This document shows, one piece after another, positions 9,869-35,878 of a stretch of 64,000 bases of DNA. The stretch covers positions 40,548,001 through 40,612,000 of the forward strand of contig OZ287752.1 in assembly GCA_965649765.1 (NCBI GenBank), read 5' to 3'. The notes beneath the pieces were generated by a model, which was given only the letters and a program-made list of their open reading frames with translations, searched no databases and was not told the origin of the DNA. Every line of letters begins with the position of its first letter. The stretch's first letter is position 1. The DNA is from Bispira polyomma. Lineage: Eukaryota. A program made the position numbers and the translations under genes.

Positions 9869-9917
9869 TGCAGGTATCCCTCACCCAACAAAGAAAAGGG
9901 AAGATACATAGAAAACA

Positions 9918-10390
9918 CACAGTGCCCCCCTTGTGTGAAGTGACCTTGGAATTGATAAGAGGTGAGTGGGAATATTAATTTTATTTCTATGTTAAACAAC
10001 TAAATTATTTACACACTTTAGAGTTAAGCATTTACTAAGTTTAATTAAAGGCCACCCTAAGGCCAAGCTTAGTCAAGTTTAAGTAAGCCCTAAGTGGGCC
10101 ATAGATTAAGATAGCCTTACCGTGGCTTTAAGGCAGGGAAACGGTAAGGCTGCCCTAACCTAGTTTAAGGCTAGGTAGAGTTTAAGGTTAGCACTACTAG
10201 TTTAAGGTAGCCTTAACCTGAGTTTAAAGTTAAGGGAAGAATTTGAGTTGAGGTCACCTTAACCTTGGGTTTAAGGTTAGGTGATTTATGATTTAAGAAG
10301 CTTAGGGTGACCTTAAACTAAATACAATATGAGAATGTTTACATTATGACTATTTACAAAAAGATTAGATATTACAAAATAGAACACCAA
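9918..10390 (-). repeat. Ngaro-1 repeat B2 (3' terminal)
   Basis: Near-identical to 11085-11559; dense in CCTTAA/TTAAGG motifs. Confidence 0.95.
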
Positions 10391-10870
10391 TAGAGCTTTA
10401 CATATAGATTACATATATAAGTTAAAACAGATGTAAAAAGTGTGTAAATAGTAAAAATTAAAAATAGTTAAAATATAAAATGCTATCCAGCCTCATTAAC
10501 CTAGACCTATAGTGCATCCAATTAAAAGAAGAGTCCCGACTAGGATACATGGGAATTCTCACTCAAGCCTTAAGTGGCTGAACCAATATAGCCCCTACAC
10601 ATGTGGTGCTGGATAGCAAAATCGGGAAATCGAGGTACAATAGGCATGTGTTGCATTGCATTGTTGCTTGAGACAGTCTTTGCTCTATGCTGGCCTGTCC
10701 CATGATGCCATTGCATGTCGATCTGAAACTACATAAGCTATTGTTAACACCGGTACAGCTTGTTCTCATACATGATAGCATTTATGACACATAATAATAC
10801 ATACAATTTTTTAACACATTATTATACAACATTTGTAAGGGAGCCAGATGGGGAAAAGGGTGGGATTTTA

Positions 10871-11088
10871 AAATTGTCTAACATAAAATGGCATCTTGCC
10901 CTTCTGACTTATAAGTTAAAAGTGGGATATTCCACACTTTTGGCGGGACATAATTAATTAATTAGTAAAGTGGACCACCCACCAACGAATCAGAACCCAG
11001 GTCAGTGAAACAAGAGTGTTTATCTTATTAAGAATGTAGGACAACAAGAGGGCACTGAATATACTAGCCCCGTGGGCTACCTTCCACA
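10871..11088 (-). repeat. Ngaro-1 repeat A2 (internal copy of the 5' end)
   Basis: 218 bp with 4 substitutions (counted by eye) versus A1 at 16637-16854. Confidence 0.95.
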
Positions 11089-11559
11089 GTGCTCACCCTT
11101 GCGGTGAAGTGACCTTGGAATTGATAAGAGGTGAGTGGAAATATTAATTTTATTTCTATGTTAAACAACTAAATTATTTACACACTTTAGAGTTAAGCAT
11201 TTACTAAGTTTAATTAAAGGCCACCCTAAGGCCAAGCTTAGTTAAGTTTAAGTAAGCCCTAAGTGGGCCATAGTCTAAGGTAGCCTTACCGTGGCTTTAA
11301 GGCAGGGAAAAGGTAAGGTTGCCCTAACCTAGTTTAGGGCTAGGTAGAGTTTAAGGTTAGCACTACCAGTTTAAGGTAGCCTTAACCTGAGTTTAAAGTT
11401 AAGGGAAGAATTTGAGTTGCGGTCACCTTAACCTTGGGTTTAAGGTTAGGTGATTTATGATTTAAGAAGCTTAGGGTGACCTTAAACTAAATACAATTTG
11501 AGAATGTTTACATTATGACTATTTACATATAGATTAGATATTACAAAATAGAGCACCAA
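11085..11559 (-). repeat. Ngaro-1 repeat B1
   Basis: Starts a few nt after the YR stop and abuts A2 through a shared CACA (11085-11088). Confidence 0.95.
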
Positions 11560-11566
11560 AGCCCAA

Positions 11567-12556
11567 TTAGGAAGTAGGAGTTGTGAGAAGGGTTTGAAAG
11601 GAGAGGGCCACTCTATCGGATGCCATGTGGTCAGAGGTCACGTAACGCCAAACGCAGTCAGATGTCCAGGTTCCATGACTCTGGATGTCCTGCAAGGGGA
11701 CATTGTTGTTAAAAGCCATGGTCGCGCCAGAGCGGCGAAAGTCATGGAATGTGATGGGGGATTCATTCAAACCTAATCTGATGAGTATTGTATGGAGGTT
11801 CCTACGCAGTCTTGAGTCTGTTAGGGGACCCCAAGAGGCATTTTGCTTGTACTGAAATAAGGGATCATTTTTTGAGCCAGGGGTGATGGCCAGGATGTTT
11901 TTAATAGCTGTCACTGGACAGATAGGTGAGTTAAGAAGGGCAGGAACTTTAAGGACCCTAACTGTGTTCTTGGCCTGAAGTGTTTTGGTCCATTTGATAA
12001 TAATGTGGAGACCAGGAGGAGCAAAAAGCACATCCGCCCTGGCCAGCTGATGAAGGGGAGAGTAAGTGGAGGAGAAGTGAGGTACAAGATTAGAAATCCT
12101 AAGGAAGGCAAAGAATGCCAGGAGATAAGCTCCTTTGAAAACTTGCCCCATATACATTGAGTCACATACCTTACTTATAAGAGTTAAGAGATCAATGTCA
12201 ATAATTTTGTGGATTTTTGCCTTGAATGGTCTGTGTAATGTGAGGGCTTTACTGAAATATTTAATATGTGGGTCATTGAAAGGGGTAGTGTCTAACCCAT
12301 AGATTGAAAATTTTGCTTTAATGGCTGCCATGTGATTAACAATAGAGGAATGAGACATTTTTCCCCACTGCCAAAAATTCCAGGAATGACAAGAGCAGCA
12401 GAGGAGTTGTATCTTGAATTTTTATTTGAATAAAGCAGCAGTAAGCCAAGAATAGCCTGAACATTGCCTTATATGCTTGTTGGGTTGTAGGCCTAAATGC
12501 CTGATGGACTGTTTGGGCTGCCTGAGCTGCTAGGAGGGCTGCCAGGGAAGGGAGAC
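11567..12556 (-). pseudogene. Ngaro-1 tyrosine recombinase (1-nt frameshift at ~12360)
   Basis: Motifs FFAFLRISNL, KWTKT, CPV, FHDFRRSGA and HGTWTSDCVWRY. The N-terminal part AFRPTTQQAYKAMFRLFLAY lies upstream of the called ORF, starting at a candidate splice acceptor (AG 12558-12557). Confidence 0.92.
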
Positions 12557-12566
12557 CTGAAATGTA

Positions 12567-14985
12567 TTATATACTCCAGTCAATGTCCAGTAATTGGTCT
12601 GGAATGTTCACCCATTCAGGGTGGGGTATAATTTGTCTTAATTTGTACTCGTTATGAGCTGTCATGTGCCATCTTGATAAGAGATCAGCAGCTTGATTGT
12701 TTTTCCCTAGTATATGGACTGTTCTTAAATTTATATCGGCGCCCGCCACTTCCATCAGGATGTTGCGCGCAATGGCTGCCAATGTTAGATCTTTAGTCCT
12801 GCCTGAGGTAAGGATAGACACCATTGCTTGGTTATCGCAGTGGACCATAAGTTTTTTGCCTGCCCAGAGGTGTTTCCACAATCTGACTGCCACCAGGATG
12901 TTTAACATCTCAAGGTGGACGATGGTAAAATTTAGATAGCCCTGAGGGACTGACTTAGTGTACACTAAACTGTTACATTTACTGCCCAGGCCTGTGAGGC
13001 ATGCATCTAGCTCTATATGATCGGTGACTGGGGCATGGTCAAAGAATGCCACCCCATTAAATTTACTGAGAAATTTGTCAAACCATCTGAGGTCCTGAAA
13101 GAATTGCACATATAGTTTAACATTACTTTCATCACTTATATTGCGTAATATGTCAAGCATACGATTTAAAAATGCCCTGGCTACTCTGACGCATTTAGCC
13201 ACATAGAGTAGTGAACCCAAGAGTGATTGCAATTCTCTTTTTGTGCATTCGGTCTTACTCAGCCAGGTTTTACACAATTGAATAGTGTCAGCTAATTTCT
13301 GGGGAGGGACCTCAATTACAAATTTCTGTGTGTCTACTAGCACGCCTAAGCAATTGACCCTAGTGGTAGGCGTTACTATCTTTTTCTTGCTGATTTCAAA
13401 ACCTAATATTTGCAAGAGCTTGTACAGGTTGTCATATGAATTGTGGGCAGCGTCGTACGTCCCGTATCCGATGACGTCATTGATATAATTGATGACGTCA
13501 TAGCCGCGTCCGTGCATGACGTAACGCACGGCATCACTGAGGCGTTGAAAAATGACGCTTCCGTGCCTGTAGCCAAACGGCAAGCACGTATCTATATAGT
13601 AGTCGTCCATTTTGAGTCTGAGAAGGTCATAATCTGCCGGATCAATCTTTACATGTCGGAATGCCCGACTTATGTCTAGCTTGTATATGAGGGTGCCTTT
13701 TCCGAGTTTTGCTACTTTGTCTGTTATGTCATCGACTGTTGGTAGAGTTAGAAGGAAATCAGTACCTAGATATTTGCTCTTTTCAATTGCAGCATTGACC
13801 GATTTACCTTTTGGGAAAACTCAGACCTATTATTACCCGACGATGAGCTGCACCAGGCTTCTCCCTAGTCATGAACGGTGAGACATGTAAAGAGGAGATG
13901 GGAGGGGTGCTAAATGGCCCCATTATTGCCCCATGTTCTTTTTCCTCAGCCAAATATGCTCGAACATCATTGGGAAATTCTGTAGCCGACTTATGATTTT
14001 CTTCAACATGGCTGAGTTCCCTTTGTCGGTCAAAGTCTAAGGGCAAACCATATTTTATAAAATAAATAAGCTGGGTGTCCCAGTAGTTACTAAGTTCACG
14101 TTGCCAGACATCCGGATTTAATTCCGATTTTAGGAGAATTTGTTCACCCATGTAATTTGGCTTACCACTGTTGTGCACTGTGTGGTGGATTTAGAGTGGT
14201 GTATTCTTACTGGATTTTTGTTTGTTGAAAGCAGGCAATGTTAAGTCACCAAGAGGTATAAAACCAAACTTACCGTGTGTTTGCTTATTCCATAGCTTGT
14301 AAACAGAGTTACTGCTAGCTTGTGCAATTGTATCCCTATGTCGGACTTTAACTTGTAACTGCAAGTCATATTTGTCTTCACTACTAGTGAGTGCATTTTG
14401 TTGTAAAATACTGTGTCCCCTTGTACTGGTATCAGTACTTGTGTTTTTTTCAGTGTTCCCCATATTTGGGTCAGTGTTCACCCCATCCCCTCTATGTTCT
14501 ACCAAGGGTGCAAACCTATTGTGGGAACTCAGACATTGTTCTGTTGTCTGACCTATTTTGGTTGCATAACTCATGTTGATGTTTGGTTTGTTTACATGGG
14601 GTTTAGTGGGTTTATCAGTCTTACCGTATTGCTTGTTGCGGCTGCTCTGCAATAGGTGCCTTTTTACATTATTTTGACATACATTACGTACACAATTTTT
14701 TGTCAACTGGCTTTCAACCAGGTGACATTTGTTCACATTATTATTGTACAATACAGTGTTAACTTTTTTAGATACATTATTTACAGTTTTACAGTCCAAG
14801 TGGCAACTGGAATTAGGCTTTTGACTGACCTTATTAATTTTTACAATATCAGCGTACGTTTTGCAATTAACTCTTGCCCAATCTGCCTTCCAATTATCAC
14901 TTGCTGCAGCTGCAACCACCCCATTGGTTATTATCCTGGAGTAAAAATTGGGCACTGCAGACTTGTAGTGCCCTATTCGTTTTTT
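12567..14985 (-). pseudogene. Ngaro-1 pol (RT/RNase H), disrupted
   Basis: ORFs 14191..14955, 13804..14178 and 12567..13610. Motifs: LPFG, YINDV (YxDD mutated), LQSLLGSL, LDACLTGLG, LEMLNI, CDN, NQAADLLSR. Confidence 0.93.
14950..14985 (-). promoter_or_regulatory. Candidate -1 ribosomal frameshift signal (A_AAA_AAC + stem-loop)
   Basis: Minus strand: tcA AAA AAC gaa ta GGGCACT acaagtctgc AGTGCCC. The heptamer is in gag phase, the spacer is 5 nt, and the -1 frame is open into the pol ORF. Confidence 0.75.
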
Positions 14986-15905
14986 GAATTTGTTTTTTCC
15001 CCCCCAGAGTTTAGCTTTCTACAATCTTTGGATGGGTGGTTGTAGCTTTTACCTCCGACAAAGCAATGAGCACATATATGGGTATATAATTGACCACCTG
15101 ACTCATGGTCAGTTTTTTGCGGACAAGTACCTTTCTGGAAAAATCTGCAGGGTTTGCCTTTTTCACTGGTGTTTTTTCTACTACTCGAGCACTGACTAGA
15201 GAAATTTTGTGATGTGGTAACCCTCTGGGCATGAGCCCTACGGATCCCATCGATTTTATGGGTGTCCTCCCAAGAAACTTTGCCCTCCTCCATTTTACAG
15301 AGGAGGACTGCATGAGCGCCTTTAGCCGTGTTCCAAGAAAAATCATGGCTATCCTCCATTAATTCCGAAAGGTACTCGAGCATTAGATCCTTAGTTACAC
15401 TATTTTGTTCTTCTTTGATTATGTTGGTAAAACCTGAGACCCATTGGACCATAGAGAGATTGTCATAAGCTAGTCTAGATTTTGTCTGCCCACCTAGTAT
15501 AAAGTTTTGCGGCCAAGGTACTTGCCGTTTAACCCACACTGTCTCAGCCCCGCCCCTTTGGGAATGAAAGTTACCTGATTCGTTTATGCGGGTCAGTTCT
15601 TGTAGTCGGGTGTCCACAGCTTCCTGGATGTGTGTTGACTGCCTCAGTGTCTGTATGGAAGGCACCAATAAGTCAGCCAGTGGGTCTCTGCTGGCAGCCA
15701 TAGGAACTTCTGTGGGAAGCCGCGATGTCGTCTGGCCACTGCTGGTTTCACCACTACCATCTGCGCCGTCTACTCTCTTTTCCATCTTAGTCATATGACT
15801 ATTTAAGTCAGTGAGCTGCTGCAGGATCAGTTTATTAACCTGGGAAGAAGACATGTCCGGTTCGTCATCCGAAACATCCGGTACAATGTACCGGATGATC
15901 ACCAC
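14973..15905 (-). CDS. Ngaro-1 gag-like ORF (true start uncertain)
   Basis: 310-aa ORF with WPQ...YDNLSMVQWVSG and a C-terminal CRFFQKGTC..H..HICAHC..H..C zinc finger, homologous to the other two Ngaro gags. Confidence 0.88.
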   Translation of the reverse strand: MVIIRYIVPDVSDDEPDMSSSQVNKLILQQLTDLNSHMTKMEKRVDGADGSGETSSGQTTSRLPTEVPMAASRDPLADLLVPSIQTLRQSTHIQEAVDTRLQELTRINESGNFHSQRGGAETVWVKRQVPWPQNFILGGQTKSRLAYDNLSMVQWVSGFTNIIKEEQNSVTKDLMLEYLSELMEDSHDFSWNTAKGAHAVLLCKMEEGKVSWEDTHKIDGIRRAHAQRVTTSQNFSSQCSSSRKNTSEKGKPCRFFQKGTCPQKTDHESGGQLYTHICAHCFVGGKSYNHPSKDCRKLNSGGEKTNSKNE

Positions 15906-16273
15906 TTTACATCTTTCATTGATTGGTTTCTAATGGTTAGACCCGCAGGCCTCACAGTCATATGTCTTCCTAGGAGCCATAATGCACTCTACGTAGCTAT
16001 TAGTCACTTTAAGGTAATGTTTTATTTAAAGAATGTCTTTTCCACTACTTAATGAATACCCTGTATTCAGCCTAGATTTTGTTTCACACCTTGGTGTGGA
16101 TTATCACAATTGTGAATGTTTGTGGTTTCGTGGTACACCGTGTGTTAACTGTTTTTATATGTAATCACAAACAATTGTACATGATTCTCCTGCACCACGA
16201 TTTAAACACAGACACCTGTGTAGTTCAATGTTTTCTGTATAAATTATTGCGCCATCGTGCACTCCATTGCACT

Positions 16274-16275
16274 GA

Positions 16276-16311
<36 letters not shown>
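16274..16311. repeat. (TA)n microsatellite in the Ngaro-1 leader
   Basis: Direct inspection. Confidence 0.95.
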
Positions 16312-16636
16312 GTCCAGTTAGTTTTACTGAAATGGAAATATAGCACAATGTGCTTAGATTTCTGCGTATACATGGAATGAGGGTGTGTTTGTAAATTTAA
16401 TGTAAAAATGCTTTAAAATATTAAAATCTAGCAGTTAAGATAACATAAATCACAGTATATAGCCCTCATTCATAGCCCCCACAAGTAGAGCAGTATGCGC
16501 ATAAATCCAAGCATAAGCAGCTTATAACATGTCAGGAACTCCACAGCAGGATCTCCATGTGATTTAGTCCAAGAAAGCACATAAAATCTCCAGGTAAATC
16601 CTTTGGAAACACAAAATAAAAGTTCCTTAAAATTTG

Positions 16637-16854
16637 AAATTGTCTAACATAAAATGGCATCTTGCCCTTCTGACATATAAGTTAAAAGTGGGATATTCCA
16701 CACTTTTAGCGGGACATAATTAATTAATTAGTAAAGTGGACCACCCACCAACGAATCAGAACCCAGGTCAGTGGAACAAGAGTGTTTATCTTATTAAGAA
16801 TGTAGGACAACAAGAGGTCACTGAATATACTAGCCCCGTGGGCTACCTTCCACA
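16637..16854 (-). repeat. Ngaro-1 repeat A1 (5' terminal)
   Basis: Matches A2 at 10871-11088. Confidence 0.95.
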
Positions 16855-17324
16855 TATTGACATTATTTTTGGTTGGAATCCTAATGCATTTCTCCAGTGC
16901 ATCAGCTTTCTGACGTCCACTTACTTTATTTCAGAATCAGAAAGGCATATTTTGTCCAAGTGGATACGATACCAATACAAAAGGAATAACTTAAATGATT
17001 GATGTGCATTGGAGCTGTATGGACCGTGCGGAAATGTTTTGTTAAAAAAGAGCTAAAACTTTTTAGTGGTAATATGAGTCATTTAATGATCAGATACATA
17101 AATATTACTGTTTAAAAGTATTAAAAGTGATACTAATTTTGAATATTAGGCAATGTAGTGTATTAGTGACAAAATTATATTTTCAATAATTACAAATTGC
17201 TGAATCAAGCCCACTATTATTTAGCTATGTTTGTTCCCAATGGCTAGGTTGGATATATACGGGGTACATGTAAACTCTAATTGGTTTTAACCATCATAGA
17301 TTTTATTTTTTTAACTTGATTATT

Positions 17325-17485
17325 TCTGGTTTTTATGTCGCTTTCACCAGTTTAGATCATAATCACTAAGGTCAGATTAAATGTTTGAAGAAATCAGTGC
17401 TGAAGAAACAAACAGGATTCAAACTAACATTGATGGGAGGCCACTGATTGTAAAGCACGCCCTTCTATCCACTGGGTCACCACGT
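17325..17485 (-). mobile_element. tRNA-derived SINE, decayed
   Basis: Head GGTGACCCAGTGG...GTTTGAATCC and tail GGTGAAAGCGACATAAAAACC, similar to 40297-40520. Confidence 0.7.
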
Positions 17486-19329
17486 GTGGCATGTGTGGAA
17501 AAGTGGAAAGTGTAAAATATATATACAACATACCATAAAATAATACACTAAAATACCTAAAATATAGTAAAAGAAATATAAGTTCTTGCAACAGTTATTC
17601 CAATATACAAACATGTTACACTCAAATTTGTGAACAGTTTAGATCTAATTCATATACTAAGATGACATTACCATTTTACAACCATGTGCCATGGATTTTA
17701 TAAATAGATTTCCAATTCACAAAAAACCCTCAGACAGCTTGATCATTGCTATAGAGACCAGACTGTAGGACCCTATCTGTCATTGAATGTGTCCATCAAG
17801 CTGGATAACAGCTACATAGTATACCAGCAAAAAAGATATTTCAAAGAGGGAAACACATAGTTTTTTCCAGTTTTTGAGTACCAGCACAATGATTGAATTG
17901 TCTGCATAATAAAGATATGCAAATAGGACACTCATGGGAAAGATTGAAACAAATCATTGTAAAAGAACCATACCATTATTTGCCTCTGTGAATAAAACTA
18001 TATGTAAGAGTAAGTTTACAACAGTTTTAAAATAGACACTCTGATAGATATCATTTATTGCAGTAATACCTTTTCTTTAAAGAATTTTTAGCAGCCACAA
18101 AACAGAATTGTTCTGTGTAGTGACCACACGTCTTGCGCATTTCAATCCACTTGAACGGGGATCAAGTGCTAGAAAGTTTGAAGTGCTTAGATAAATTATA
18201 ATTAATCTTGACCAAAGAAAACTCATGTGCAGACATTGTTATTATTCTTGTGTTTTTTTTTGTAAACTACGGTATGACTGTTTGCAGATTTTAAGATCTA
18301 AAAAATAAACCAACCTTCAAGGTTTGGCCCAAACTTGCAGTATTTTGCCCTTGTTGTCACCTCTAACAGTATGTTCTTCCTATCTAACAATGGAACGATA
18401 ACACTATGATGGTTTCAGAAGACAACATGAAGGTCACTCTTTTGTTGGTTTCCAGATTGCCAGATCAATCTAATGATAACAAGTATTTAGCACTAGCACA
18501 GAGGGGAACAGAACTGTAGTGCCTATTACGTTGGTCTTTTGTAGTTGTTAACCATTTTTGTTTAACTGAAAAGACATAAGTCTCGACTAGTAATTAAACT
18601 GTAGCTTGGTAGCAATAGATGGCTTAACTCAGGTCCTATATAAGACATGTAGTGCTACATTTAATGGCATAAAAATAATGCTTTAGAGCTATAAATACTA
18701 ATATTAGGCCGTTTAACTTTATGCTCTTTTCCATGTTAAATCTACTTTTGCATCTTAAGTACATTCACAAAGTTCTGTTTAAACATTCATGTGGGCACTT
18801 GACTCTGTATTTATGTGTTTTAAATCCCATTAAACTCCTTATTGCTCCCATGTGGCCTAGTAGTGAGGGAGTTTGTCTGGTGATCAGGTGGTTTCTGGTT
18901 TAATTCATGATAATCCCGTCTAGTGTATTTCGTGAGATATATAACGTCACTGGGGAAAATGTGAACATGCCATTGCCTACTGATGAAGACCCAGGCTATG
19001 TTTATAGAACTATCCCTTTCGGTAAATTAGTGTCTTAAAGGATATTATATTATTAAGATGCTCTATCAATGCTTCAATCATTATTATAATAGGTTAAACA
19101 CTGATGCCCAGGCATCCCCCAAGCAAGGCTCCACAAGGCTTCCCAGTGGCATTGTCAGCACCTTAGAGGAAGTCATATCAATAGGGCGCTATAGAAATGC
19201 TTCAATAACAATAACCTCGGTTATGGTAACAAGTGGACTATGAAGTTAACCAATAGCACAGTCTAAGTATATACTGGTATTTGTAAGGAAAATGTGGATT
19301 GTGTACTGAGAAAAACCTGTAAGGAAAAT

Positions 19330-19640
19330 AATTCTAATTCTAATTGGACTTTTATAGAGCTTAATCTCTCCTTTACGAAGGGGACTCTATGGCTCAACAA
19401 CACCAAGAGAGTTAACCAATTTCAGTATCCAGGGACAGAAAAACGGTCAAGCACCACAGAGTACACCAGATGGGTATGCCTTGGTGTACAGGTAGGTTTT
19501 AAACCGCTTTCTAAAAGAGGCTAGAGCGGGGGACTCACAAATCTCAACAGAAAGAGCATTCCCAACAGTGGAGTAGACCGTTGTTCCTTATGCATCTGGC
19601 ATTCAGTACACCCAACATGACAGGACCAGGGTTAAGGGAC
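19330..19640 (-). mobile_element. L2-like LINE 3' fragment
   Basis: Minus strand encodes a WN(A)L...SFRKRFKTYL-like C-terminus followed by a short-repeat (AATTAG) tail. Confidence 0.55.
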
Positions 19641-20704
19641 ACATCACCGCCCAGTAAAGAAACAACATAAAACCTCTACAATTAACCAAACTTGAAAATT
19701 TGTGACATAAACAGGTGTATGAAAAAAAGCCTGCTTGAAAAGGTATGACTTCATGTTTCTTCTCTGAGCTTGTATGGTTGTGGATATTATTAGGACGCTT
19801 GACTAGACAAAAAGAAAACAAAGGCTACCAACCTTATTTAACTACATAAGTATTTAATAAAATAATAGAAGCTTTAGGCTATGGTCACAGTGAAAATAGC
19901 AAGGATGGAACTACAGAAACATATAAGAATTAAGGGAGACTTATGAACTGATTGTTATAGATACTTCAGAGATCTCAACAGGCAGTTTTCTCACTTGAGG
20001 CACCCCTCAGAGTATCTTTGACAGGAAAAAGGACTCCATGATGACTTGATAGTACTTGGTACGACTTCAGAGATTGTATGGTACTGTATACGTGGGAAAT
20101 ATTTACTAGGAATTTAAATTAGCTCTGTTACCTAAATGAGTCGGGATAGTCAAAATTAATTTTAAGTGAAAATTTGATCTTGTATCCAAGAATGGTGAAT
20201 AGTAAAAAGGAATTCCTGTGATATTCTTTAATACAGTAAAAATTACTATTTTCAATAGTGGTGAAATTTTCGTCCATCTGAAATTTCTACTTATATAAAT
20301 ATAAATGTATGCCCCAATACTGGCAGTCGGCATTTTGTAGGTATTAGATTCATAATATTATCGTCCAAGGACAGGGCACTAATAGTTCTGGTAAATCATA
20401 TTGTGATTCTATGAGAGTCTGGGGAAGACTTGCAAAAGATAATGTATGTGACAGACCAGTGGAGTAATCTGCTTTTAGTTAGCTTTAAACTTCGATGCGA
20501 TGTCCTTGAAACAGGCAAAGTAGCCAGTTTTACCAGAGTTAGGTAAGCCACATAGAGATGCACAAAGCTACTGTATCCCTCATTATAACCATTGAATAAC
20601 CATTTAATTTCGAAAGAGTTGTCTTTTCTTCATTTTTCCCCCGAGAAGTTGCAGCTCCCAAATATAACCTACAATGTTTGGTGCAAATAAGGCACAACAA
20701 AAAC

Positions 20705-20920
20705 AAATGTACAAATTTTATTGTAATTTATCTTTTTGGAAGATAAATACTTACCTTATCCTCACTTACGCTATTTCATTTAGTTTACACCTATACCCAA
20801 CCAAAAAATCACTCAGTCTTTTTAAAAAGACTATTCTTGTGATGTCATTTTTACTCACTGCGCATGCCCAGAAGTAACCAAACTCTCGTGGAACGAGAGA
20901 AACCCTCAGTTTTCACTTGG
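20705..20920 (-). repeat. DIRS 3' ITR with terminal extension
   Basis: 20741-20920 is the reverse complement of ~31421-31620. Contains the 18-bp palindrome AGTCTTTTTAAAAAGACT (20815-20832). Confidence 0.95.
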
Positions 20921-20970
20921 AAAGTTGGAATTCCAGAAACAAAAGTGGGGTTGGCTGGGTGGGATCCAGT

Positions 20971-21070
20971 TAAGTGAGGATAAGGTAAGCATTTATCTTC
21001 CAAAAAGATAAATTACAATAAAATTTGTACATTTTATTGCGATAAATACTCCTTACCTTATCCTCACTTA
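20971..21070 (-). repeat. DIRS internal complementary region (ICR)
   Basis: The first half is the reverse complement of 20705-20769 and the second half of 31590-31630. They join at CATTT (21030-21034). Confidence 0.95.
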
Positions 21071-21554
21071 CGCTAGAATCCAACCTTAAAGGTGGTGGGT
21101 AGTTTATGGAACCCAAAGAACCTAAGGATTTAGAGGATAATTTTATTTGTTGAAAGCAATAGCGTAAGTGTTGAGGATAAGGCAAGTCCTTATAACATTA
21201 CTTGTAGATTAGATACTCTATAGGTAGATGAATCCATAACATACCTCAATCTTTGATCTGAAGTATGGCTGTACAACTGAAGTGACGTAGTACAAAGTTC
21301 CTATGTACATATCTACAGAAGTGGTCCTATTCACATATGTACAAATGTCAGCCTCATGATGTCACTGAAGGTCAGGAAGTCTCCGTCATAAAGAGTGGCA
21401 TCACATGGCTGAGTCCAACACTGTTCTTTACTGTTCTATGTACAAGTAGGAGGCTGGAAAGAAGAATACAACAATGGTTATATCATTAGCATACACAACA
21501 TATGAATATAATGTCATAACAACAAAGATCTGCAAGAACCCTTACATAATTACA

Positions 21555-21782
21555 GCTTGACAAAATGTTGTGCAGCCACCACAGAACCCAAGGTAAATTC
21601 AGAATCTTCCTTAGCTAAAGACACACCCCCTTTGAAAGCCACAGATGCTGCCATGGATCTTAAGTCATGAGCTTTGATTTGAGTAAGAGAGGCAATCTCT
21701 TCATCTGCCAACTTATACCCTAACAAAACAGTTTGTTTGATCCAAGATGATATCGTTGACTTTTTGATATCAGTTGTAAAAC
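21555..21782 (-). pseudogene. DIRS YR, C-terminal part (separated by the nested insertion, internally deleted)
   Basis: Reads FTTDIKKSTISSWIKQ...IKAHDLRSMAASVAFKGGVSL-AKEDSEFTLGSVVAAQ. The W...FxxFY catalytic segment is absent. Confidence 0.88.
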
Positions 21783-21981
21783 AGTTCGCTATGTGTAAGT
21801 CTCAGTAAATTAGTGATGTGAAAGTGTCTGCAGTTTGTGATACAAGACAATAAAAACATACTGTTTTTGGAGTTTATTTTCCTGTACAAGTTAGTATAGC
21901 TATGTACAATATGCGGTAGTTAATATAAAATATTTAAAATTTCAAGAGGTAACTGAGATTTTAAATGAACCCAAACCCAAG

Positions 21982-22958: not shown

Positions 22959-22964
22959 CTACAA

Positions 22965-25781: not shown

Positions 25782-26877
25782 CTAACTGGGTGTCGGCTTG
25801 TCTGAGGATCTTTTGGCGACATTCGCCTTAACACATTTGAATTCTGGATGTGTGTTCTCCCTATTTGCTGAGCGAAAACAATGGTTACATATGTGGCGAT
25901 ATTGTCCGTGGTCGGACTCGTGGTTGCAAGTGCCGTTATTGTAAAATTTACAAACATTCTTGGGTTTTTGTGATGCCTGTGATGCCTGTAGAGCCTGCGC
26001 GACGTGGCCGTTAATCAGAGCCAGCTGCGATGTATTCATGCGATTTAATGCCCAACCTGCTCTAACAGCTGGCCAGGGAAGTGAAGACGAATCCCTCAGA
26101 GTATAAATCATTTGGTACATCATGTGCCGCATGTTAGTGGCATCTGAGACTTGTACAATGTTAAATAACGGCAGCCCACTGTGACAGTGAGAGGTCATCA
26201 AAGCTAGGTCGTTTCCGAGCAGTGCCTCCGATCCAGCCCTCGTTTGACCACAGAGATTGTGGATCAGACGTAGTAACGTCCGTGGTGTTAAACGGACCGG
26301 ATTTGTGTCTGAGGGAGGTCTTACCTTGCGACAGGTCCGTCCTAAACTGCACGTCATAAGCCGCCAGTCGTTGATTTACTGCAGCGTTAACCTCAGGTAG
26401 GGTCTTCAAAACATCCGGTCGAGGGATAATGCCATCCCGCTGGTAGTCTTGGTGAAGAGCAGCCACTGGGGCCCTGTACTGAATGGCCTGAGCCGCGTGG
26501 ACGTCTGTATGCATGTGAGGGATGTAGTGATTACCCGGTGGAATTAGGGGAAGTTTGTCTGCAATTGGTGGCCGTAGTTCTATCATGGTATTGTTGGCGC
26601 CCTGCTGTGTAGGAGAGGTTAATGGGGTCGAGTTACACGCACCTTTCAATTCCACCTTATCGAGCCGTCTATTAATTTCAGAATTTGCTAATTCCAGCCT
26701 TTTTAAAATAGTCATTATGTCTGAAATACCATTCTCACCCGTCGCTGTCTGTGCTTCTGTCTCCTTTGTGATCCTAAGTTTCCTAACTACTGGATCTGTG
26801 CCTTTGGTTGTCCCGCGTTTAGAGGTCGTTTTCTTCTTGGATAACGGAACACTACCTGGTGTTTTCGTCTTTCCCAT
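25782..26877 (-). pseudogene. Ngaro-2 gag (one frameshift near 26165)
   Basis: ORFs 26161..26877 and 25782..26357. Contains QGK..KSG, FDDLSLSQWAA and the zinc finger CKFYNNGTC..H..HICNHC..H..C. Confidence 0.9.
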
Positions 26878-27169
26878 ATTGTGTAAATATTAAAACACTA
26901 ATAAAATCACTTGTTGTAAAAGAACATAAAACTTAAATGTATCACAGTTATAAAAATTTTTTTATTCGTTGTTGACCCTTCTAATGCTTGGTCCAATATG
27001 GCACCCAAAAGTGGGGATACAATTTCTAATTAAGGGTGGCCTAATTAGTGATTGGTTCATTAGGACATGTGTGAGGAAAATGTGTGTGAACAAGAATAGT
27101 CTTTTTAAAAGGGGTATTTATTGGGATGGTGAACTGATTCAGCAGACCCCTAAAGTTGTCGTGCTCGAC

Positions 27170-29318
27170 ACTCTCTCTAAAGGATATAAACAAAAGATTC
27201 TTGTCCTTCCTAAATCCCTTAGTTCTACTGACATATTGTTTTAGAGCCCGAACAGGACATAAAGACAAATCCTCAGTAAGGTTATCATCCAGAAATGGTG
27301 TGAGTGCTGGGATAATAACAGGTTTGATTGAATCTGATCCTGCAGAGGCTAACTGATTCTTGGCTATGAAAACAGGCGAGGGGGCTACAGTGACCTCAGT
27401 CCACCCAGGTTTATGCTTAAGTGAAGAAAAAGTCCATGCATGAATCTCACCCCTTCTTTTGCCTGACGCCAAGGCCATTAGGAAAACTGTCTTAAAAGTC
27501 AATAGTTTGAGAGAAGCCTCCTTCAAAGGCTCAAATGGAGGCTTAGTCAGAGCTAGAAGGACTACAGATAGATCCCAAGTGGGTATGCCCCTATCCTTAA
27601 CTGGTCTATCCCTATAAAAACTTGCCAAAAGCCTATTCAAATCCAGACTTTTAGAAATTTCTAAGCCTGAGGAAGCCAAATGATCAGCCACAGCTGTACG
27701 GTAACCAACAATAGTACCAGGTTTCAAATTCCGTTGTTGAAACAAGAATAAAAGAAAATCTGCTATCTGAGGGATAGAAGGTTTTGAGAGGTCCACCTTA
27801 TTCTCATTTGCCCACTGTTTAAATAAGGACCACCTTGATTCATAGACAGGTCTTGAGGAAGCTCTTTGAGGAGCCTTAATTCGGTCTTCCACTGACTGTG
27901 AGAGTGTTGTGTTAGATCCGAGTTCAGTAACCAAACATGAAGGTTCAAAAATTGAAGATTCGGGTGGTATTTCTGACTGAACGGTTGTTTCATAAGTTGA
28001 GGCCACTGAGGTATCAGGTAAGGTGGACTCACTGAAAGGTCTACTAGATCCCAGAACCAAGTCATCCCTGGCCAACCTGGAGCTAACACCATCATTCTGC
28101 ACTGGTACCTTAACATTTTCTAAACTACTTTTGGTATCAGAACGACTGGACAGAAGGCATAGCCGTCCAGACCCTCCCAAGAGATATTCAATTCATCTAT
28201 AGCTAGTGCTTGGACATCTGGGATTGGGGACACATACAGGGGCAACTTGTGGTTTCGATTTGTAGCAAACAGATCTATTTGAGGCCGGTAAAGCTTTTGA
28301 CAAAGTAGATCAAACATCTGGGGATGTATTGACCACTCTGTGTGAATGACCTTGTCCCTCCTGGAGAGACTGTCGGCCAACACATTCAGACAACCTGGTA
28401 TGTATCGGGCTCAAACCCTGATTCTGCAAGGATTGCAAAAGGCAAATATTCTTCAAACTAGAAGACACATTTCCAGGGAATGAGTTCCCCCTTGCTTGTT
28501 TAGATAGGCTACTACTGAAGCGTTGTTGGTGGCTATCAAAACTCGTTTGTTGTCTATATGCTTTACAAACACTTTTAAGGCCAGAAATACAGCTTTCAGC
28601 TCTAACACATTGATATACAAGCCTTTTTCTATGTCTGACCAGAGGCCCCTTTGAACCATATCGCCTAGATGCGCTCCCCAATCTGTATTGGAAGCGTCTG
28701 TGAAAAGTAGGGTGTTGTGCTCTAGAGTCTAGAGGATGCAAGTTTTTGCCTACCATCACATTTCGACGATCCGACCACCAAATCGTTTGATCTTTTAACC
28801 TGTTTGACACAGGAATTGGGATATCTAATGATTGAGGAACTCTCCAATGCGTTTTTAGATACCATTGGAAAGGCCTCATGTGAAGTCTTCCAAAGGGGAC
28901 TATCTTCTCTACACAACCCATGACACCTAACAGGGACATTAACTTCCTGGGAGTGAAGATCTGAGCTTTCTGAACTTCTATTAATTGATTTTGTAATATC
29001 TTCCACTTCTTTTGTGTTGGAAATACTAAACCCCGAAGTAGATCGAATCGATAACCGAGGAAATCGATTTGCTGAGTTGGGTGAAGTTCCGACTTCTGGT
29101 AATTGATCACCCAACCCATAGATTCTACTATCTGGATCATAGAACGGATCTGAGCTTGACTGTCCCTTAACGTTAGGGAGCGAATCAGCCAATCGTCTAA
29201 ATACTGATGTATCCGAATACCTTGAGATTGAAGTACCAGCTTTGTTTCTTTGACAGTTCAAGTGAACTCTATCGGAGCTAATGCTATCCCAAAGGGAAGA
29301 GCCCGAAACTGGTAACAC
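27170..29318 (-). pseudogene. DIRS YR, N-terminal and core part (frame overlaps RT/RH/MT)
   Basis: ORF 27041..28180 has YESRWSLF, TIVGYRTAV, WDLSVVL, KTVFLMALASGKRRGEIHA and LCPVRAL. Its last ~40 aa run into Ngaro-2. ORF 28722..29318 is probably the overlapping upstream part of this frame. Confidence 0.85.
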
Positions 29319-29800
29319 TGATTTGCTACATTGAATCGAAGGTATCTCTGTGAATTGCGATGAATCGGTACATGGAAGTAAGCGTCTTTAAGATCTAGCG
29401 ATGCTACCCACTCCCCCCGTCTCAACGAGTTTCGAATAACCTCTGCTGTTTCCATCTTGAAAGTTGGGACATACAAATTCCGATTCAGGAAGCTCAAATC
29501 TATGACAGGACGCCATTTGTTGTTTGGTTTTGGGGCAAGGAATAAACGACTGTAAAATGCCTGAGTTGTATTGATCCTTATTGCAGAAATCGCTCCTTTT
29601 TTAGCATTTCGTGAAAACAAAATTCTAGCGCCATTTGTTTCTCTTTGTTAACATAACCGCTGTGGATTGTGGGTAATCGAGAGAACGGGATTCTCGTTTG
29701 TAAGCGAATTCGGTAGCTGCATTTTAGGATCAGTACGGCTCGAGGATGACACTTTAAACTTTCCCATACCTGCCAAAATCCTTGCAAGCGGCCCCCATGT
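27763..29800 (-). pseudogene. DIRS pol (RT, RNase H, methyltransferase-like), frameshifted
   Basis: Motifs GGRLQGF, FYSRLFLAPK, WRPVIDL, SLDLKDAYFHVPI, ALPFG, YLDD, INVLELKAV, ADSLSR and IDLFATNRN. Confidence 0.93.
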
Positions 29801-29849
29801 CTTCTGCTGTAGTTGTCACTTCCTTCTTCCTCGTCCACCCCTCGTTGGC

Positions 29850-31342
29850 TGAGAAGCCTGGTAGTTTGCGGACTTGGTATTAAAGCTGGTCCCCCGAAAA
29901 GAACCCTGCCTCTGACCACCCGAATTCTGAGCCTGGTGCTCATGCTGAGATGAAGTTGGATTTGGTTTCAAATTTCTGTCTTTTTGGGCTCATTCGAGCT
30001 CTTTCCTTAGCTAGTTTTTTCTCTACATCATTAACTGTGCTGGGTGAAAAAAGGTCAGAGGTGAAGAAACCTTTTCTCCTGAGATGATTTGACTGGTGAT
30101 CTCCAATAGGAAGGCAGCTGGCCTTAAGAATACTATCCCTTCTCATCAGTTGTAAATTGCAAGCCATTGCGATACTTGAATCAATAATAGTCTCAAGGGC
30201 CTTGTCCACTGAGCCTAAACATGTTTGTGCAATCTGAAGATTACTTGAAGCTGTTTCCACTTCAAACTTCTGTATATCAGACATCCCTTCACCCAGACCT
30301 GATAAAGAAGAGTCTACATCCAGCATGGACCTATCCATGGTCCTAATAAAATGACACACAAATGACAGTACTTGAACATTCTCTCTAAGTAATGTCTCCA
30401 TTGAAATCATCTGCTTGCCTGGAAGAGAGTAATGAGATGGTAAGTTGACAGACTTCGACAGGGACTTGAATCCTGGCATTTAGGAGCTGTAGTGGCAAAG
30501 GAATCTCCGGAAGATTTATAATATCTCATTTTGGGCCTATTATAGGACAAAAATTCTCCTCTGTTCAATGGAGTGGAAGCCAAAAGTTCAGGAGAGTTAA
30601 CATCAGGACGTCCAGCAGCGACTGATTCATAATGCCTCCATCTTTGCAAGACGTCTTCAATTGGTGGTAAAGACATGGGCAGCAACGTTGACTTCTTAGG
30701 CCTAGCAGGACCAAAAATTCTGGCAGGCTGAGCTACATCATCCATAACAGTCTCTAAACCTAATACATGCCTCACTGTAGCAAGCATCTGTCTGTAAGGA
30801 GGATCCTCCTCATCCTGTCCTTCATCCTCCTTGTCAGCATCTAACTTCGATGAGGGGGACACCGAACGTGCTCTCTTCTTAGAAGGTCCATCCCCAGCAG
30901 AGATCATCTCGATCTCGCCCTCCTCTGGAGTAGGGGTAACTGCTGTCTGTGTTCTCTCAACATTAGCCAGCCTACTGTTAATTGAAGACAATTGCTGTAA
31001 AATCTGCTGTAATGGATCAGCCGATTCTCCCATCAGAACGGGAGTCTGACCTGACAACTGCCCTGCATCTTCTCCCAACAACTGATCTTCTAAAACCTTC
31101 TCTTTCTTCTTAATCTTCAAAAGGGCCTGTTCGATACGTCTACTATGCTCTGTGGTCAGTGCCAGACATACAAAACAGTCATCTGTTGACTCGGTCACAC
31201 AAACATCATCTCCAAGTTTACCAGCCCTGCAAGGAAGGCAGTAACGATGCGAGTCAAAGTCATATACAGGGTGGCCACACTGAGGAGCCATTCTCTGCTT
31301 CTTCTGGGGAGTCTTCCCTTGTAAAACCTGCTTTTCAGCCAT
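29850..31342 (-). pseudogene. DIRS gag-like ORF1 (frameshifted)
   Basis: Probable ATG at 31342 (MAEKQ). Contains the finger CGH..DSHRYCLPCR..DVCV..CFVC, and CNLQLMRRDSIL in ORF 29940..30479. Confidence 0.85.
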
Positions 31343-31420
31343 AACTCCCAAAGTATTACTCACAAAATTCAAAATAACGGTCGACAAAAAAAAAATGGCA
31401 ACGAGGTGCACACAAACATG

Positions 31421-31630
31421 ACCAAATGAAAACTGAGGGTTTCTCTCGTTCCACGAGAGTTTGGTTACTTTCGGGCATGCACAGTGAGGATTGTCGAGGA
31501 AATTTTAAAAATGAAATCACAAGAATAGTCTTTTTAAAAAGACTGAGTGATTTTTGGTCGGGCATAGGTGTAAACTAAATGAAACAGCATAAGTGAGGAT
31601 AAGGTAAGGAGTATTTATCGCAATAAAATG
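31421..31630 (-). repeat. DIRS 5' ITR
   Basis: Reverse complement of 20741-20920; ends in AAATG (31626-31630). Confidence 0.95.
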
Positions 31631-32199
31631 ATTGTTTAAAGGGCTTGTGAGAAGATCAAATGTAAGATAAATATTTGTAAATCAATCCTACGTTTTATTT
31701 CATATTTTTTATTAATACATGTAAGAATATGTATATAATCTAGATGCCAGTTTCTGTATAAATATATCAATAATTAATTAACACGTTGATACTTCCACCA
31801 CAAATTTGACTCCAACTTCTGTTCTCTTACCATCCACCTTCAGATGAGATGCTTCCAGAAGTTAATTTTCTGTCTTCCAGTACAGCAAGATGCCATTTTT
31901 AAACCAGTTGTTTTGATTTTCAAATACATCAGTAAAGTTTGACCAAAATATGTATCTGTCTTGTTACACTTCTGCTAGAATAAGGCACAGTAAGCCTGGT
32001 CAAGTGTACTTAGATGTTTTATATATGTACCTTCTATACATAAATCTATTTGCCTTCATTCTCATTTACACACATAGACTTTTATTAATGAGGGTGAAAT
32101 TGTCCAAAGTAGAATTTATAATGCTACACCGGGACATTTGGTCTTTTCAATATTTTAATATTAATTTTTAATTTAAATGTAATTTTTTTTATTTATCAA

Positions 32200-35100
32200 G
32201 AACAGGGACTTACAAAAAAAAAAACCCTTATAAACAGGAAGATTTAGCCTTTTACAGGTATTTTAATGCAAAGTTTTTATTTTTACATTAAGTTTCTCAG
32301 CCCATAAAGTAAGAGATAGTAAATTCAGGGTAAAGTTGGTAGATGGTAAAGTTAGAGGTGATATGAGTAGAAGACAGTAAACGATTTCTATTGAGGATTT
32401 TTTTACAGGTTAATATTTATGTACATGTTGACAATAAAATGAGTTAAAATTGAATGTAAATGAAAATTTTAAGCCCCATACGGGCTAATAACACAGCAGG
32501 GAAATGCATCCTGCAATCAAACAAGGACTAGCCATAATAAAACAAATTAAAAGCCCAGTACAGACCCCATAGTCATACTTCACTTTCAGGTTAGTAAATA
32601 ATTCATCCAACATCATGTGAGTAGTTATGTTATCAATTGTAGGAAATTTGAGAACAAACCTTACCCCGTCAAATAATGTTTTGTTGACGTTTTCGTTGAC
32701 TGAACGCCCATAAGGGTGTGACAAATTCAAAATTACTCTACGACTGTTTGTGTCCTTAGTATGGGTGAGGAGTGGTGAGCAATGGTAATGAGAGGACTTA
32801 ACCTCTTCCACTGGACCTAACATGGCCCCATGACTATGTTCTTTCTCAAGATATTCCCCTACACTCTTAGTGTGTTGGAGGGCAGAGTAGTGGTTCACCA
32901 CTGTATTATTATGTAACTTATCAGGGTCAGTTAGAGAAAGGGGGAAGCCAAACTTTATGTATTGACATAACAGCTTGTCAGGATAATCCCTAAATGTACT
33001 TTCCCAGGCGTCTATGTTAAGACCAGACAGAAGGGGGATTCTAGCCTGCTTGTAATTAGGGACAGCTGTATCTCTAATGACACTAGCTACCTGCAGCATG
33101 TCCTCTACCGTGTTGATGGCCACTGGGGATCTATCTGGCCCCACGAAGTTGAAGTCAGTGGAAGACAGAGCCAAAAATCCTACCTGCTTATTTTGTACAT
33201 TAAAATCCCTTACTTCCTTATACTGATTGCTATCTAATTCACCCTTATATAACATCTGTGAGAAGTGTTCGCTCGGTGTGTATATTTTATCACAATTCAG
33301 ACTAGCACTAGTCTTGTTCAAGTCGGGTTCGCTCGCTATGTATGTTTTATCACAACCAGGACTATTACTAGTCTTGTACCATTCAGGTTTACTTACTTTT
33401 GTATGTTCAACAGCCTCATCTACACATGTGTGTGTTTCTTCAACAGACTCCTCAATCAGAGTGTCTATCAATCTGGTCATATATTCATTATAGTCATAGA
33501 CAAGCTGTTTAATGCAAGCCCTATCTCTCTTAAAATAATAGAAAGTGTCAGCTGCCTGCCTCATTGCTGTGGGATGATGAACTTCCACCTTGCTGTAACC
33601 AATAGTATTTAAAGAAACCATTTAGACCAACATTATGGTTGTAAATGTTTGAATAATGCAAAGTTCTCTCTGTGGTGGAATTTCAACACTGCCATAACTA
33701 ACCTTGGCAGTGGTCACGTCAAAGTAGGTGTGAAAGAAACCCTTTACTAATCCAGAGTTATCACTGATATAAACAATAGGAGCCATTGAATGAATTCGTG
33801 GACTATAACTTTGCCAATTCGTTGTGGATACTTGAACTTCCAGTTCCTTTAAATTCAATTTTTCATGACTGTGACCATTGCTACATACATATAAAACCCT
33901 ACCTCTGGTGTAGTGAGGGTCACAGGCTGATTAATTGGTTGCCTGGGGCCCTCATTCCTAAGAACGGTTACCGACTAGAAACTTGCAGATTCATACAGCC
34001 CCTGCACTGGTTCTGATGATCTGTGAGGCACATTAGAGGAACCCTGCAACTGAATAAATTGTTGAATAACATTAATGTCATTTTGGCTATCATCATAGCC
34101 TACATCCATACATACAAATTTATTACTAGTTACATTTGCTTTGCTTACAACACTAGATGTTTTACTTTTAGCTGCAATGTCAATCTCTCTTTTTGGAACA
34201 TTATTATTGTGATTTATGATTGTATTATCACTCTCTATTGGCTGTAATACACTACTACTGTTACTCAAATCTGTCATTACATTACTCATTAAATACTGGT
34301 GGCTATCTACAATACTACCCTCGCCACTCACTGATATTGTGCGTTTAACTGGTTGTGAACCATTGTCCTAGTTGTTGGTCATCTGCTTGTCGGGTTGTTT
34401 ACTCAGGTTGGCCTTGAAGCACTTAAACTCCGGATGTGTAGAGTCTTTACATAGGGTTTTACTACAGTACCAGCAAACATGCCGATAAGAGCCATGGTCG
34501 GCCTTATGTGTACATTTTCCATTATTGAACAAGTTACATATCGACTTGTTTTCCGACGAAGAACTGGTCCCGTGTTGACTGCCATGTTGACTGTTCACCA
34601 TGGCCATCTGAGAGGCACTGATGCGGTTTCAAGACCACTGTGTATTGTCCTGCCAGGACAAGGGAGGGATGCAGCATCCCGAAGCGCGTGTAATACTTGG
34701 TTGATCATAAATTTCATGGTGTTGTGGTCTTTTACTAATAGAGAGTTGGCCAGCTGACCAGCTGCCCATTGGGGCAAAGTGAGGTCGTCGAAAGCCGGCC
34801 TACATTTCACTGAACCCCCGCCCCACCCCTCATTGGGCCATCTTAGAGTAGGGTCAGCTAGTGAAATGTCTGTCGTGTTGAATCTGCCCGACTTTTGTCT
34901 AAAAGAGTGCTTACCGTTTGTCAGGTTCCTCTGGGCTAGAGCCTCGTACTCAACTAGCTGCTTGTTCACGGCCGCTTGTACATTCGGGAACGAGTGCAGG
35001 GCGTCTAAGCTAGGTACGATACCGTCTCTGTTGTAGCCTTGATCCGTTCTGCTTGCCATGGGAGGAGCCATCGTGGGAACCGGTTGCACACACTGAGGTT

Positions 35101-35878
35101 GAGCGATGCCGTTGTATCTGTGAGGGGGAGGTGGGAGCGAGTAGCCCTCTGACCCCTGAGTCTGTATGACTGTACCATCCCTCATCACGTGAGTAGGGGA
35201 GCTAGCAGGCGTGACGTTGCCTTGCTGTTCTTCCACACGCTGGAGGCGCCTAGTTATGTTGTCATTAGACGATTTGAGATCATGCAAAATCACCATCATC
35301 TCACCCATGTTTTGGTTGTCACTGGACTGTGAACTCGGACCCGGACGAGAAGAGGCGGTGAACTGGTAACCGTGTTGTTCTGAAAATCCGTCAGTCAGAT
35401 TAAGCAATACAGAATCTGTGATGGGGACGCCGGAGTGTGAAAGCGTGGCTTGTTTGTGTAAACTGTTTGCAATGTTTGTTACCTGAGTGCCGGCCCCACT
35501 CTTTGACCCTTTCGTGGAAGCCGTTGTTCTAGTCGTTTCTTTAGCTTCTCGCTTTGCCCTGGTGTCTTTTTCGTTCGCCCCATAGTGATCACTGTGTAAC
35601 ACGTATTAATTAAAACAACACTAAAATAAAAAATAAAACAGAACAATCATGTAAAATCTGATTATTCTTCTTGGAATTTTCCTTAGACCTGTTGGCAGGT
35701 CAAATTATAAATTCAATATGGAGGGAAGCTGCTGACCAGGCCTGTGAGTGGTCAGCAGCTGGATAGACAGATTGAAGGATTATGCCAATGCATTCGCTAG
35801 GGCATAAGGTAGATCTAATGTTTTAATAAAAGGGGGTTTTGGACTGAACTATCAGTCACCTGAAGTTGACTTGCTATG
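32200..35878 (-). mobile_element. Ngaro-type element (Ngaro-3), RT core/RH/YR deleted; 3' boundary uncertain
   Basis: Gag 34368-35602 and pol pieces 32620-34367 are homologous to Ngaro-2 (FVGPDR, PNYKQARIP, KFGFPLSL, HCSPLLT, RRVILNLSHP, KFPTID, then homology stops). The 5' end at ~35820-35878 resembles the Ngaro-2 5' end. Confidence 0.88.

Follow-up and report, generated by a model that had tools for sequence, protein, structure and literature searches.

DIRS1-like and PAT-like retrotransposons share a reverse transcriptase (RT)/RNase H (RH) and a tyrosine recombinase (YR) with Ngaro elements, and PAT-like elements also have split direct repeats. Both groups carry a methyltransferase and often have long overlapping frames (PMC3266345), whereas Ngaro-type copies have no methyltransferase. 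In fungal Ngaro elements, YR stands in the same frame as RT-RH or in a shifted one (PMC3783388), as in the elements described here. Ngaro-like families of Xenopus have overlapping open reading frames (ORFs) and a hydrolase (10.1101/2021.08.05.455354); no hydrolase was seen in our elements. In Cafeteria Ngaros, ORF1 has been linked to integration-site choice (PMC8547959). The papers examined do not state by what route YR retrotransposons, without a protease, produce RT and a recombinase devoid of a start codon. Here, we analyse a 64,000-nucleotide stretch of the Bispira polyomma genome (GCA_965649765.1, contig OZ287752.1, positions 40,548,001 to 40,612,000; hereafter the window), whose minus strand carries three related Ngaro copies as well as a DIRS1-like element. 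More than 130 natural relatives, from the same genome and from contigs of other organisms, retain the layout gag, recoding site, pol, YR. Conserved signals would let one transcript yield Gag, Gag-Pol and a recombinase fused to the N-terminal part of Gag (GagN-recombinase). We infer this mechanism from comparative sequence analysis and give it a probability of about 0.8.

Retroviruses and long terminal repeat (LTR) elements use -1 sites of the heptamer class found here, a class among the shiftiest in PMC5009743, likewise followed by a hairpin past a 6-7 nt spacer. The gammaretroviral UAG followed by G is a type III readthrough context (PMC3542737), as in one of our clades; its stimulator is a compact pseudoknot in gammaretroviruses, whereas in these Ngaros it is predicted to be a duplex of kilobase range. 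Tombusvirids and luteoviruses combine UAG-G with long-distance 3' pairing (PMC3542737), as the same clade would do, and three of its copies read AAA UAG GUA, as luteoviruses do. In closteroviruses, a GUU-stop at the end of ORF1 is a proposed +1 site (PMC3542737); another of our clades is alike, but the next base is mostly U, not C. These three viral systems belong to plant RNA viruses, whereas the distal arm of the Ngaro duplex lies in the RNase H coding region. Finally, the SD' RNA of murine leukaemia virus (MLV) joins a donor inside gag to an acceptor close to where pol ends and places the N-terminal part of Gag in frame with integrase (PMC10496198). Its product P50 contains only integrase's final 116 amino acids and is accessory (PMC10496198), whereas here the whole recombinase seems to be without another expression route. 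Unlike retroviruses and LTR elements, these Ngaros have no protease or DDE integrase, and four recoding signals occur in one superfamily. A first-pass annotation of the window had described the scheme as retrovirus-like. The analogy holds for Gag-Pol, but the predicted splice fuses the integrase equivalent to one half of Gag and resembles MLV SD'/P50 more than env. The likeness in Gag-Pol may have arisen by convergence, as that annotation proposed, or recoding may have been inherited from a shared gag-pol ancestor.

In the window, every feature of the layout named by that annotation was found at its place:

9916-16854 (-): Ngaro-1, full-length decayed element with A1-ORFs-B1-A2-spacer-B2 split direct repeats
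16633-16854 (-): Ngaro-1 repeat A1, 98% identical to A2 at 10867-11088
11085-11384 (-): Ngaro-1 repeat B1, ungapped part, 94% identical to B2 at 9916-10215
14973-15980 (-): Ngaro-1 gag, ATG at 15980, stop at 14975-14973, premature stop at codon 17
15569-15577 (-): Ngaro-1 predicted splice donor CAG/GTAACT, phase 1, G/GT at 15575/15574
14979-14985 (-): Ngaro-1 slippery heptamer A AAA AAC for a -1 shift, in the correct register, 10 nt ahead of the gag stop
14951-14972 (-): Ngaro-1 hairpin, 6 nt past the heptamer, one mismatch
12567-14985 (-): Ngaro-1 pol, comprising linker, RT and RNase H but no methyltransferase, stop at 12569-12567, carrying one stop and one frameshift
12557-12566 (-): Ngaro-1 predicted acceptor, phase 1, 10 nt past the pol stop, AG at 12558-12557
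11567-12556 (-): Ngaro-1 tyrosine recombinase exon, one frameshift
21781-27169 (-): Ngaro-2, 3'-truncated, inserted in the DIRS1-like element
25782-26877 (-): Ngaro-2 gag, frameshifted, ATG at 26877
26319-26327 (-): Ngaro-2 predicted donor AAG/GTAAGA, phase 1, cut at 26325/26324
25781-25784 (-): Ngaro-2 in-frame UAG then G, predicted readthrough site
25762-25772 (-): Ngaro-2 proximal arm of the predicted long-range duplex (+10 to +20 past the UAG)
23207-23216 (-): Ngaro-2 distal duplex arm, RNase H codons L-V-V, 2.56 kb downstream
22959-22964 (-): Ngaro-2 predicted acceptor, 6 nt past the pol stop (22967-22965), AG at 22960-22959
21982-22958 (-): Ngaro-2 tyrosine recombinase exon with an open frame, in which codon 80 is the first Met
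34909-34917 (-): Ngaro-3 predicted donor ACG/GTAAGC, phase 1 in the gag frame, cut at 34915/34914
34367-34370 (-): Ngaro-3 UAG-G in frame; this copy has lost the RT core, RNase H and YR by deletion
27170-31630 (-): 5' part of the DIRS1-like element, which has inverted repeats and overlapping frames and belongs to another superfamily; it serves as contrast and outgroup

The sites that would give access to pol, a -1 slippery site in Ngaro-1 and an in-frame UAG in Ngaro-2 and Ngaro-3, are in register, and YR is present in two copies, as first reported. The overlapping frames ascribed to the DIRS1-like element are also seen. Exon 1 would be 406 nt long in Ngaro-1 and 553 nt in Ngaro-2, ending in phase 1 as required by the two phase-1 acceptors, and the predicted introns extend from 15574 to 12557 (3018 nt) and from 26324 to 22959 (3366 nt). 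The Gag of Ngaro-1 consists of an N-terminal Cys/His motif, a coiled coil, a helix pair, a helical domain and C-terminal zinc fingers. Its -1 frame is open for 261 codons. The pol frame past the UAG is open for just 68 codons in Ngaro-2 and 130 codons in Ngaro-3, where the first ATG is out of frame with the donor. Stops or frameshifts are present in all three copies. Because of this decay the window alone is insufficient proof, and the scheme was therefore tested on relatives.

The genome (1.04 Gb) gave more than 12,000 first-look candidates per recombinase query. From it, 80 natural copies were fetched as a first sample, and 79 copies were clustered, with the window copies, into 40 families at a cut-off of 85% nucleotide identity in YR. 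Later samples comprised 40 more divergent copies, 30 loci of the +1 clade (3 of them repeats of earlier copies) and 16 held-out copies. Other organisms are represented by 25 metagenome contigs; a search of viral contigs for relatives gave no yield. Individual copies and contigs are designated by L numbers.

The gag-pol junction carries a conserved signal that differs from clade to clade. In relatives of Ngaro-2 (UAG clade), gag ends with TAG-G in 32 of the 35 scorable copies (42 examined) and in 18/18 representatives. Gag stops vary freely in the -1 clade (TAA 9, TGA 5, TAG 4 among 18 representatives). Past the TAG, pol is open in frame for 788-947 codons in L039, L055, L057, L064, L065 and L067. 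In relatives of Ngaro-1 (-1 clade), A AAA AAC stands exactly at -10 in 28/34 scorable copies (41 examined) and is followed by a near-invariant stem; the -1 frame is open for 812-848 codons in L075, L094, L098, L099 and L108. The components of a -1 frameshift site are thus all present: an X XXY YYZ heptamer in register, a 5-9 nt spacer, a 3' structure and pol in the -1 frame. Three other -1 layouts share this heptamer, likewise in register but placed at -7, -28 or -34; for the last two positions, no clear 3' structure was found. A further clade, the +1 clade, ends gag with GTT-stop in 10/11 copies and in 20 of the 24 scorable among the 30 further loci. Its +1 frame is open for 830, 834 and 1175 codons in L141, L143 and L147, and pol has no conserved AUG. 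Seven of seven copies fold +9..+40 onto +174..+210 at -25 to -38 kcal/mol. Six foreign contigs include gag: five end it in UGA with pol in frame (open for 830, 75, 559, 650 and 556 codons), two of them in a type II-like context (UGA-CUA or UGA-CUG), and one has A AAA AAC UAA. The first-pass annotation had proposed two recoding mechanisms. Both are conserved, but there are at least four signals, UGA and the GUU-stop that it missed being added. Four recoding types would therefore coexist in one superfamily, and three in one animal genome.

Of 49 scored copies, 30 are in frame, and in 22 of these the linker between the recoding site and the Pol core, 230-460 codons long, contains no stop; the other frames have 8-72 stops. 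A dN/dS of 0.26-0.50 in 7 pairs indicates purifying selection on the linker. Conserved Pol peptides precede any Met of the recoded frame in 13/21 -1 copies and, by eye, in 8/10 +1 copies. The claim that pol has no nearby AUG goes too far: no AUG start is conserved, but a Met is often found within 100 codons, at no conserved place. A single fused gag-pol ORF was not the state of young copies: 18 matches of the L067 family share one 477-codon gag frame, and fused copies are single mutants nested among near-identical recoded copies, so fusion was rejected as a family state. Together, these data make it highly probable that pol is expressed by recoding at the end of gag.

Several features of the junction and of Pol were observed in passing. 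In the +1 clade (L176-L205), a second in-frame stop usually directly follows the first (GUU UGA UAG), which would guard against readthrough. In L151 and L152, five matches share a 631-codon gag frame that results from a change in the heptamer region; the altered shift site seems not to have kept this subfamily from multiplying, perhaps in trans. In the UAG clade, the linker of Pol contains a conserved Tyr/Phe/Cys-rich domain of about 130 amino acids (L067:2830-3264, plus strand; window 24773-25381, minus strand) that is absent from the -1 clade and has no Pfam or Atlas match. The start of Pol in the +1 clade (L141:1438-1650, plus strand, and relatives) has a conserved FW-x3-HLG-x-C-x-C-x-WC motif, possibly a metal site, where the -1 clade has W-x-x-DWARF.

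In the UAG clade, positions +9 to +18 past the stop are conserved without a local hairpin, and local folds share none. A long-range partner was therefore searched for. Across the entire element, the segment past the UAG is predicted to pair best with the RNase H L-V-V codons, 2.1-2.7 kb downstream, in 15/17 copies. Bases +12 to +20 are predicted to pair there, with compensatory changes. At +14, a third-position pair, A-U (5), G-C (8), G-U, C-G and U-A are all seen and 16/16 copies are paired; third-position pairs also covary at +17 (C-G 9, U-A 5) and +20 (G-C 6, A-U 4, C-G 4). Cognate duplexes reach -21.2 kcal/mol against -13.5 for non-cognate ones, a gap of 7.7 kcal/mol equalled in 0/20,000 permutations, which ignore relatedness. 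In the held-out set (16 fetched), 6/6 scorable copies pair best at the predicted site. The same long-range scan gave no shared partner for UGA contigs or for the -1 lineages with a distant heptamer. With its UAG, 3' G, in-frame downstream ORF and predicted 3' structure with covariation, this junction has the components of type III readthrough.

Access to YR is marked by a second set of signals. The first-pass annotation had proposed a phase-matched GT-AG splice from mid-gag, and phase-1 donors and acceptors are found in Ngaro-1 and Ngaro-2 and conserved across families. The glycine codon at the donor is GGT in 36/38 families (63/80 copies anchored), as compared with 12/38 families for a neighbouring gag glycine and 91/366 for YR glycines. 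The preceding codon ends in A in 33/38 families. Coding for Gly-Lys was rejected as the cause of the donor, since silent positions are fixed. On the acceptor side, a YAG ends exactly 56 nt ahead of the A-[LF]-R-P motif of YR in 37/38 families (72/76 copies); at other offsets, the mean is 1.0 and the maximum 8. This acceptor is always in phase 1, matching the donor, and lies 6-21 nt past the pol stop, giving predicted introns of 3.0-3.5 kb. A phase-1 donor past the same helix was also found in 20/20 true matches among the 40 further copies, in 15/16 held-out copies and in 6/6 foreign gags, and a T-rich phase-matched YAG in 13 of 14 anchored foreign contigs. The donor follows the conserved helix pair in -1, UAG, +1 and UGA lineages, in what a structure prediction places as a low-confidence linker between helical blocks. 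The Gag model as a whole is of low confidence (pTM 0.32) and gave no PDB match, and Gag matched no Pfam family beyond weak zinc-finger matches. Relative to pol, YR occupies all three frames (7, 3 and 24 of 34 families), which excludes a single readthrough or shift from pol; Pol-YR readthrough was rejected on this ground. The predicted product would consist of 133-259 amino acids of the N-terminal half of Gag followed by about 325 amino acids of recombinase. Expression of YR by a splice from mid-gag is, to almost the same degree as recoding, very probable.

The copies are assigned as Ngaro-type by their repeats, gene order and lack of methyltransferase, their RT having been compared only with the DIRS RT of the window. 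Definitions of Ngaro and DIRS/PAT were taken from PMC4157794 and PMC3266345. Split direct repeats A1...B1 A2 B2, with the internal pair past YR, are present in Ngaro-1 and are 97-100% identical in L099, L067 and L054; none were seen in the fetched stretch of L074 or L031. The A2-B2 spacer is about 480 nt in Ngaro-1 (window 10390-10860) and about 800 nt in L099, with no coding role seen. Gag, RT/RNase H and YR are co-oriented, with Pfam matches to RVT_1, RNase H-like, Phage_integrase and SAM-like. Six intact Pol frames stop about 30-35 amino acids past RNase H with no further domain and hence no methyltransferase; a PAT-like assignment was rejected on this ground. A DIRS1-like one was rejected because the repeats are direct only, without inverted terminal repeats and an internal complementary region. 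In a quick RT tree, the UAG clade has a support of 100, the main -1 clade one of 99 and the +1 clade one of 94; other -1 lineages and the UGA lineages form further branches, and the DIRS RT of the window is far outside. Frameshift and readthrough types are in separate clades, so the recoding signal would have changed several times. The idea that sister lineages swap recoding and keep the splice holds for the separate clades and the retained splice, but sisterhood of the -1 and UAG clades is unsupported, the fork being basal.

The signals are directly seen, as are their register or phase, their retention at silent and non-coding sites and the way they sort by clade; they confirm, at the sequence level, that the initial observation is real, strongly conserved and richer than first reported, and they support its interpretation. 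In the proposed mechanism, unspliced RNA would mostly give Gag, and a minority of ribosomes would enter pol. Depending on the lineage, they would do so by a -1 slip on A AAA AAC before a hairpin, by a +1 slip on GUU-stop, by UAG-G readthrough aided by the long-range duplex or by UGA readthrough. Removal of an intron of 3.0-3.5 kb, from mid-gag to just past the pol stop, would drop the C-terminal half of Gag, the recoding site and pol. The N-terminal half of Gag (basic or Cys/His N-terminus, coiled coil, helix pair) would then be joined in frame to the whole recombinase. As there is no protease gene, splicing would provide recombinase without attached RT and in a dose of its own. Tentatively, with odds slightly below even, the GagN part may let the recombinase co-assemble with Gag and travel with the cDNA to be integrated; nuclear import or target-site choice are alternatives. 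We lean slightly towards the view that the spliced GagN-recombinase is the general way in which Ngaros of all eukaryotes make and package their integrase, with the gag-pol junction as a swappable recoding cassette, one version of which would include a kilobase-range duplex of a type described so far for plant RNA viruses.

Several points weigh against this mechanism. Copies were chosen by similarity to set queries and are a non-random sample. The quick RT tree has 82 rows from 132 candidates, 50 being without a long enough open RT frame, and its basal forks are open. For pol, 8/21 -1 copies have a Met ahead of the first conserved Pol peptide, 3 of them as an AUGA overlapping the gag stop, and the extended stem that individual +1-clade copies form was not recovered by RNAalifold. 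For the duplex, besides the kinship of copies ignored by the permutations, the cognate test on the six related held-out copies was non-significant (p 0.14), L069 has no duplex and the best partner in L047 is 50 nt away. For the splice, two GagN searches revealed no intron-less copy among the matches listed (150 of 195; 147 of 147), in which open frames of about 544 and 599 codons would be expected. No GagN-YR fusion was found among 150 GagN-like proteins, and 3 long YR proteins were all pol-YR chimeras. These protein libraries look gene-called from DNA, which makes the absence of a fusion weak evidence.

Of the competing explanations, the one that survives best accepts recoding and the splice. 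GagN would merely supply a start codon, and the duplex would serve packaging, splicing control or reverse transcription. In avian retroviruses, env takes six gag codons, a precedent for a start-codon donor, and the binding function of GagN is our inference. Both duplex arms are intronic, the distal one about 260 nt ahead of the YR acceptor. However, the donor stays past the second conserved helix block in every lineage, though a donor near the AUG would suffice. The duplex starts 11 nt past the stop and was found only in the UAG clade; in 14 -1-clade copies, pairing at the same site reaches just -5.6 to -15.4 kcal/mol. We consider this explanation rather unlikely.

A second explanation is improbable. 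It has the recombinase made from its own AUG, by reinitiation past the pol stop or from an internal promoter, with GT and AG as by-products of protein and AT-rich sequence. A Met at YR codon 32 in 20/20 -1-clade families agrees with it, and also limits the claim that YR has no start AUG. No donor-acceptor joint was found among the 15 joints listed of 206 (window 9900-27400) in three runs that behave as DNA contigs. Against own-AUG initiation, the first Met in the UAG clade is variable (codon 10, 45, 57, 70 or 80). Codon 32 comes after the first helix and the conserved A-[LF]-R-P motif, and own-AUG initiation leaves unexplained why silent sites of the donor are fixed and why a non-coding YAG keeps its distance and phase. 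Least probable is that pol is made by splicing or termination-reinitiation, with TAG-G as a 3' splice site: TAG/G does fit YAG/G and the gag stop is overlapped by an AUGA in some -1 families, but T content is 13% upstream of the gag TAG vs 47% upstream of YR acceptors, acceptor scores are -0.8 to -16.4 vs a minimum of 7.4 for true acceptors, no acceptor is conserved ahead of pol, the sole conserved donor is in phase 1 where TAG would require phase 0, and textbook shift sites are in register in three other lineages, so the gag TAG was rejected as an acceptor.

The first-pass annotation knew of no such scheme for Ngaro. A full-text literature search, with the founding Ngaro papers and Repbase/Dfam outside its scope, found no description of it for YR retrotransposons, and the excerpts of PMC6681497, PMC3783388, PMC8547959, 10.1101/2021.08.05.455354, PMC7192593, PMC4157794, PMC3266345 and PMC5009743 hold no account of it. 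The scheme is testable, with exact sites. The 2004 abstract of Goodwin and Poulter is said to mention spliceosomal introns in YR elements; parts of the scheme may thus be in print there or in Repbase. If true, the scheme would bring a whole retroelement group into the recoding catalogue, with natural sister systems for mechanism replacement. An animal genome would then contain a +1 site of closterovirus type as well as a long-range duplex for readthrough, and annotations of Ngaro recombinases would miss the N-terminal half.

In two foreign contigs (L116:939-3796 and L118:1196-3881), a new gag begins shortly past the YR gene, which suggests tandem or circular element forms. In the window, Ngaro-3 is just upstream of the DIRS1-like element that Ngaro-2 entered. 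The empty site of Ngaro-2 in this high-copy element (window 20700-31630) is seen in DNA contigs, where 21780 adjoins 27170. A tandem array with a period of 38 nt is located at window 45049-45694.

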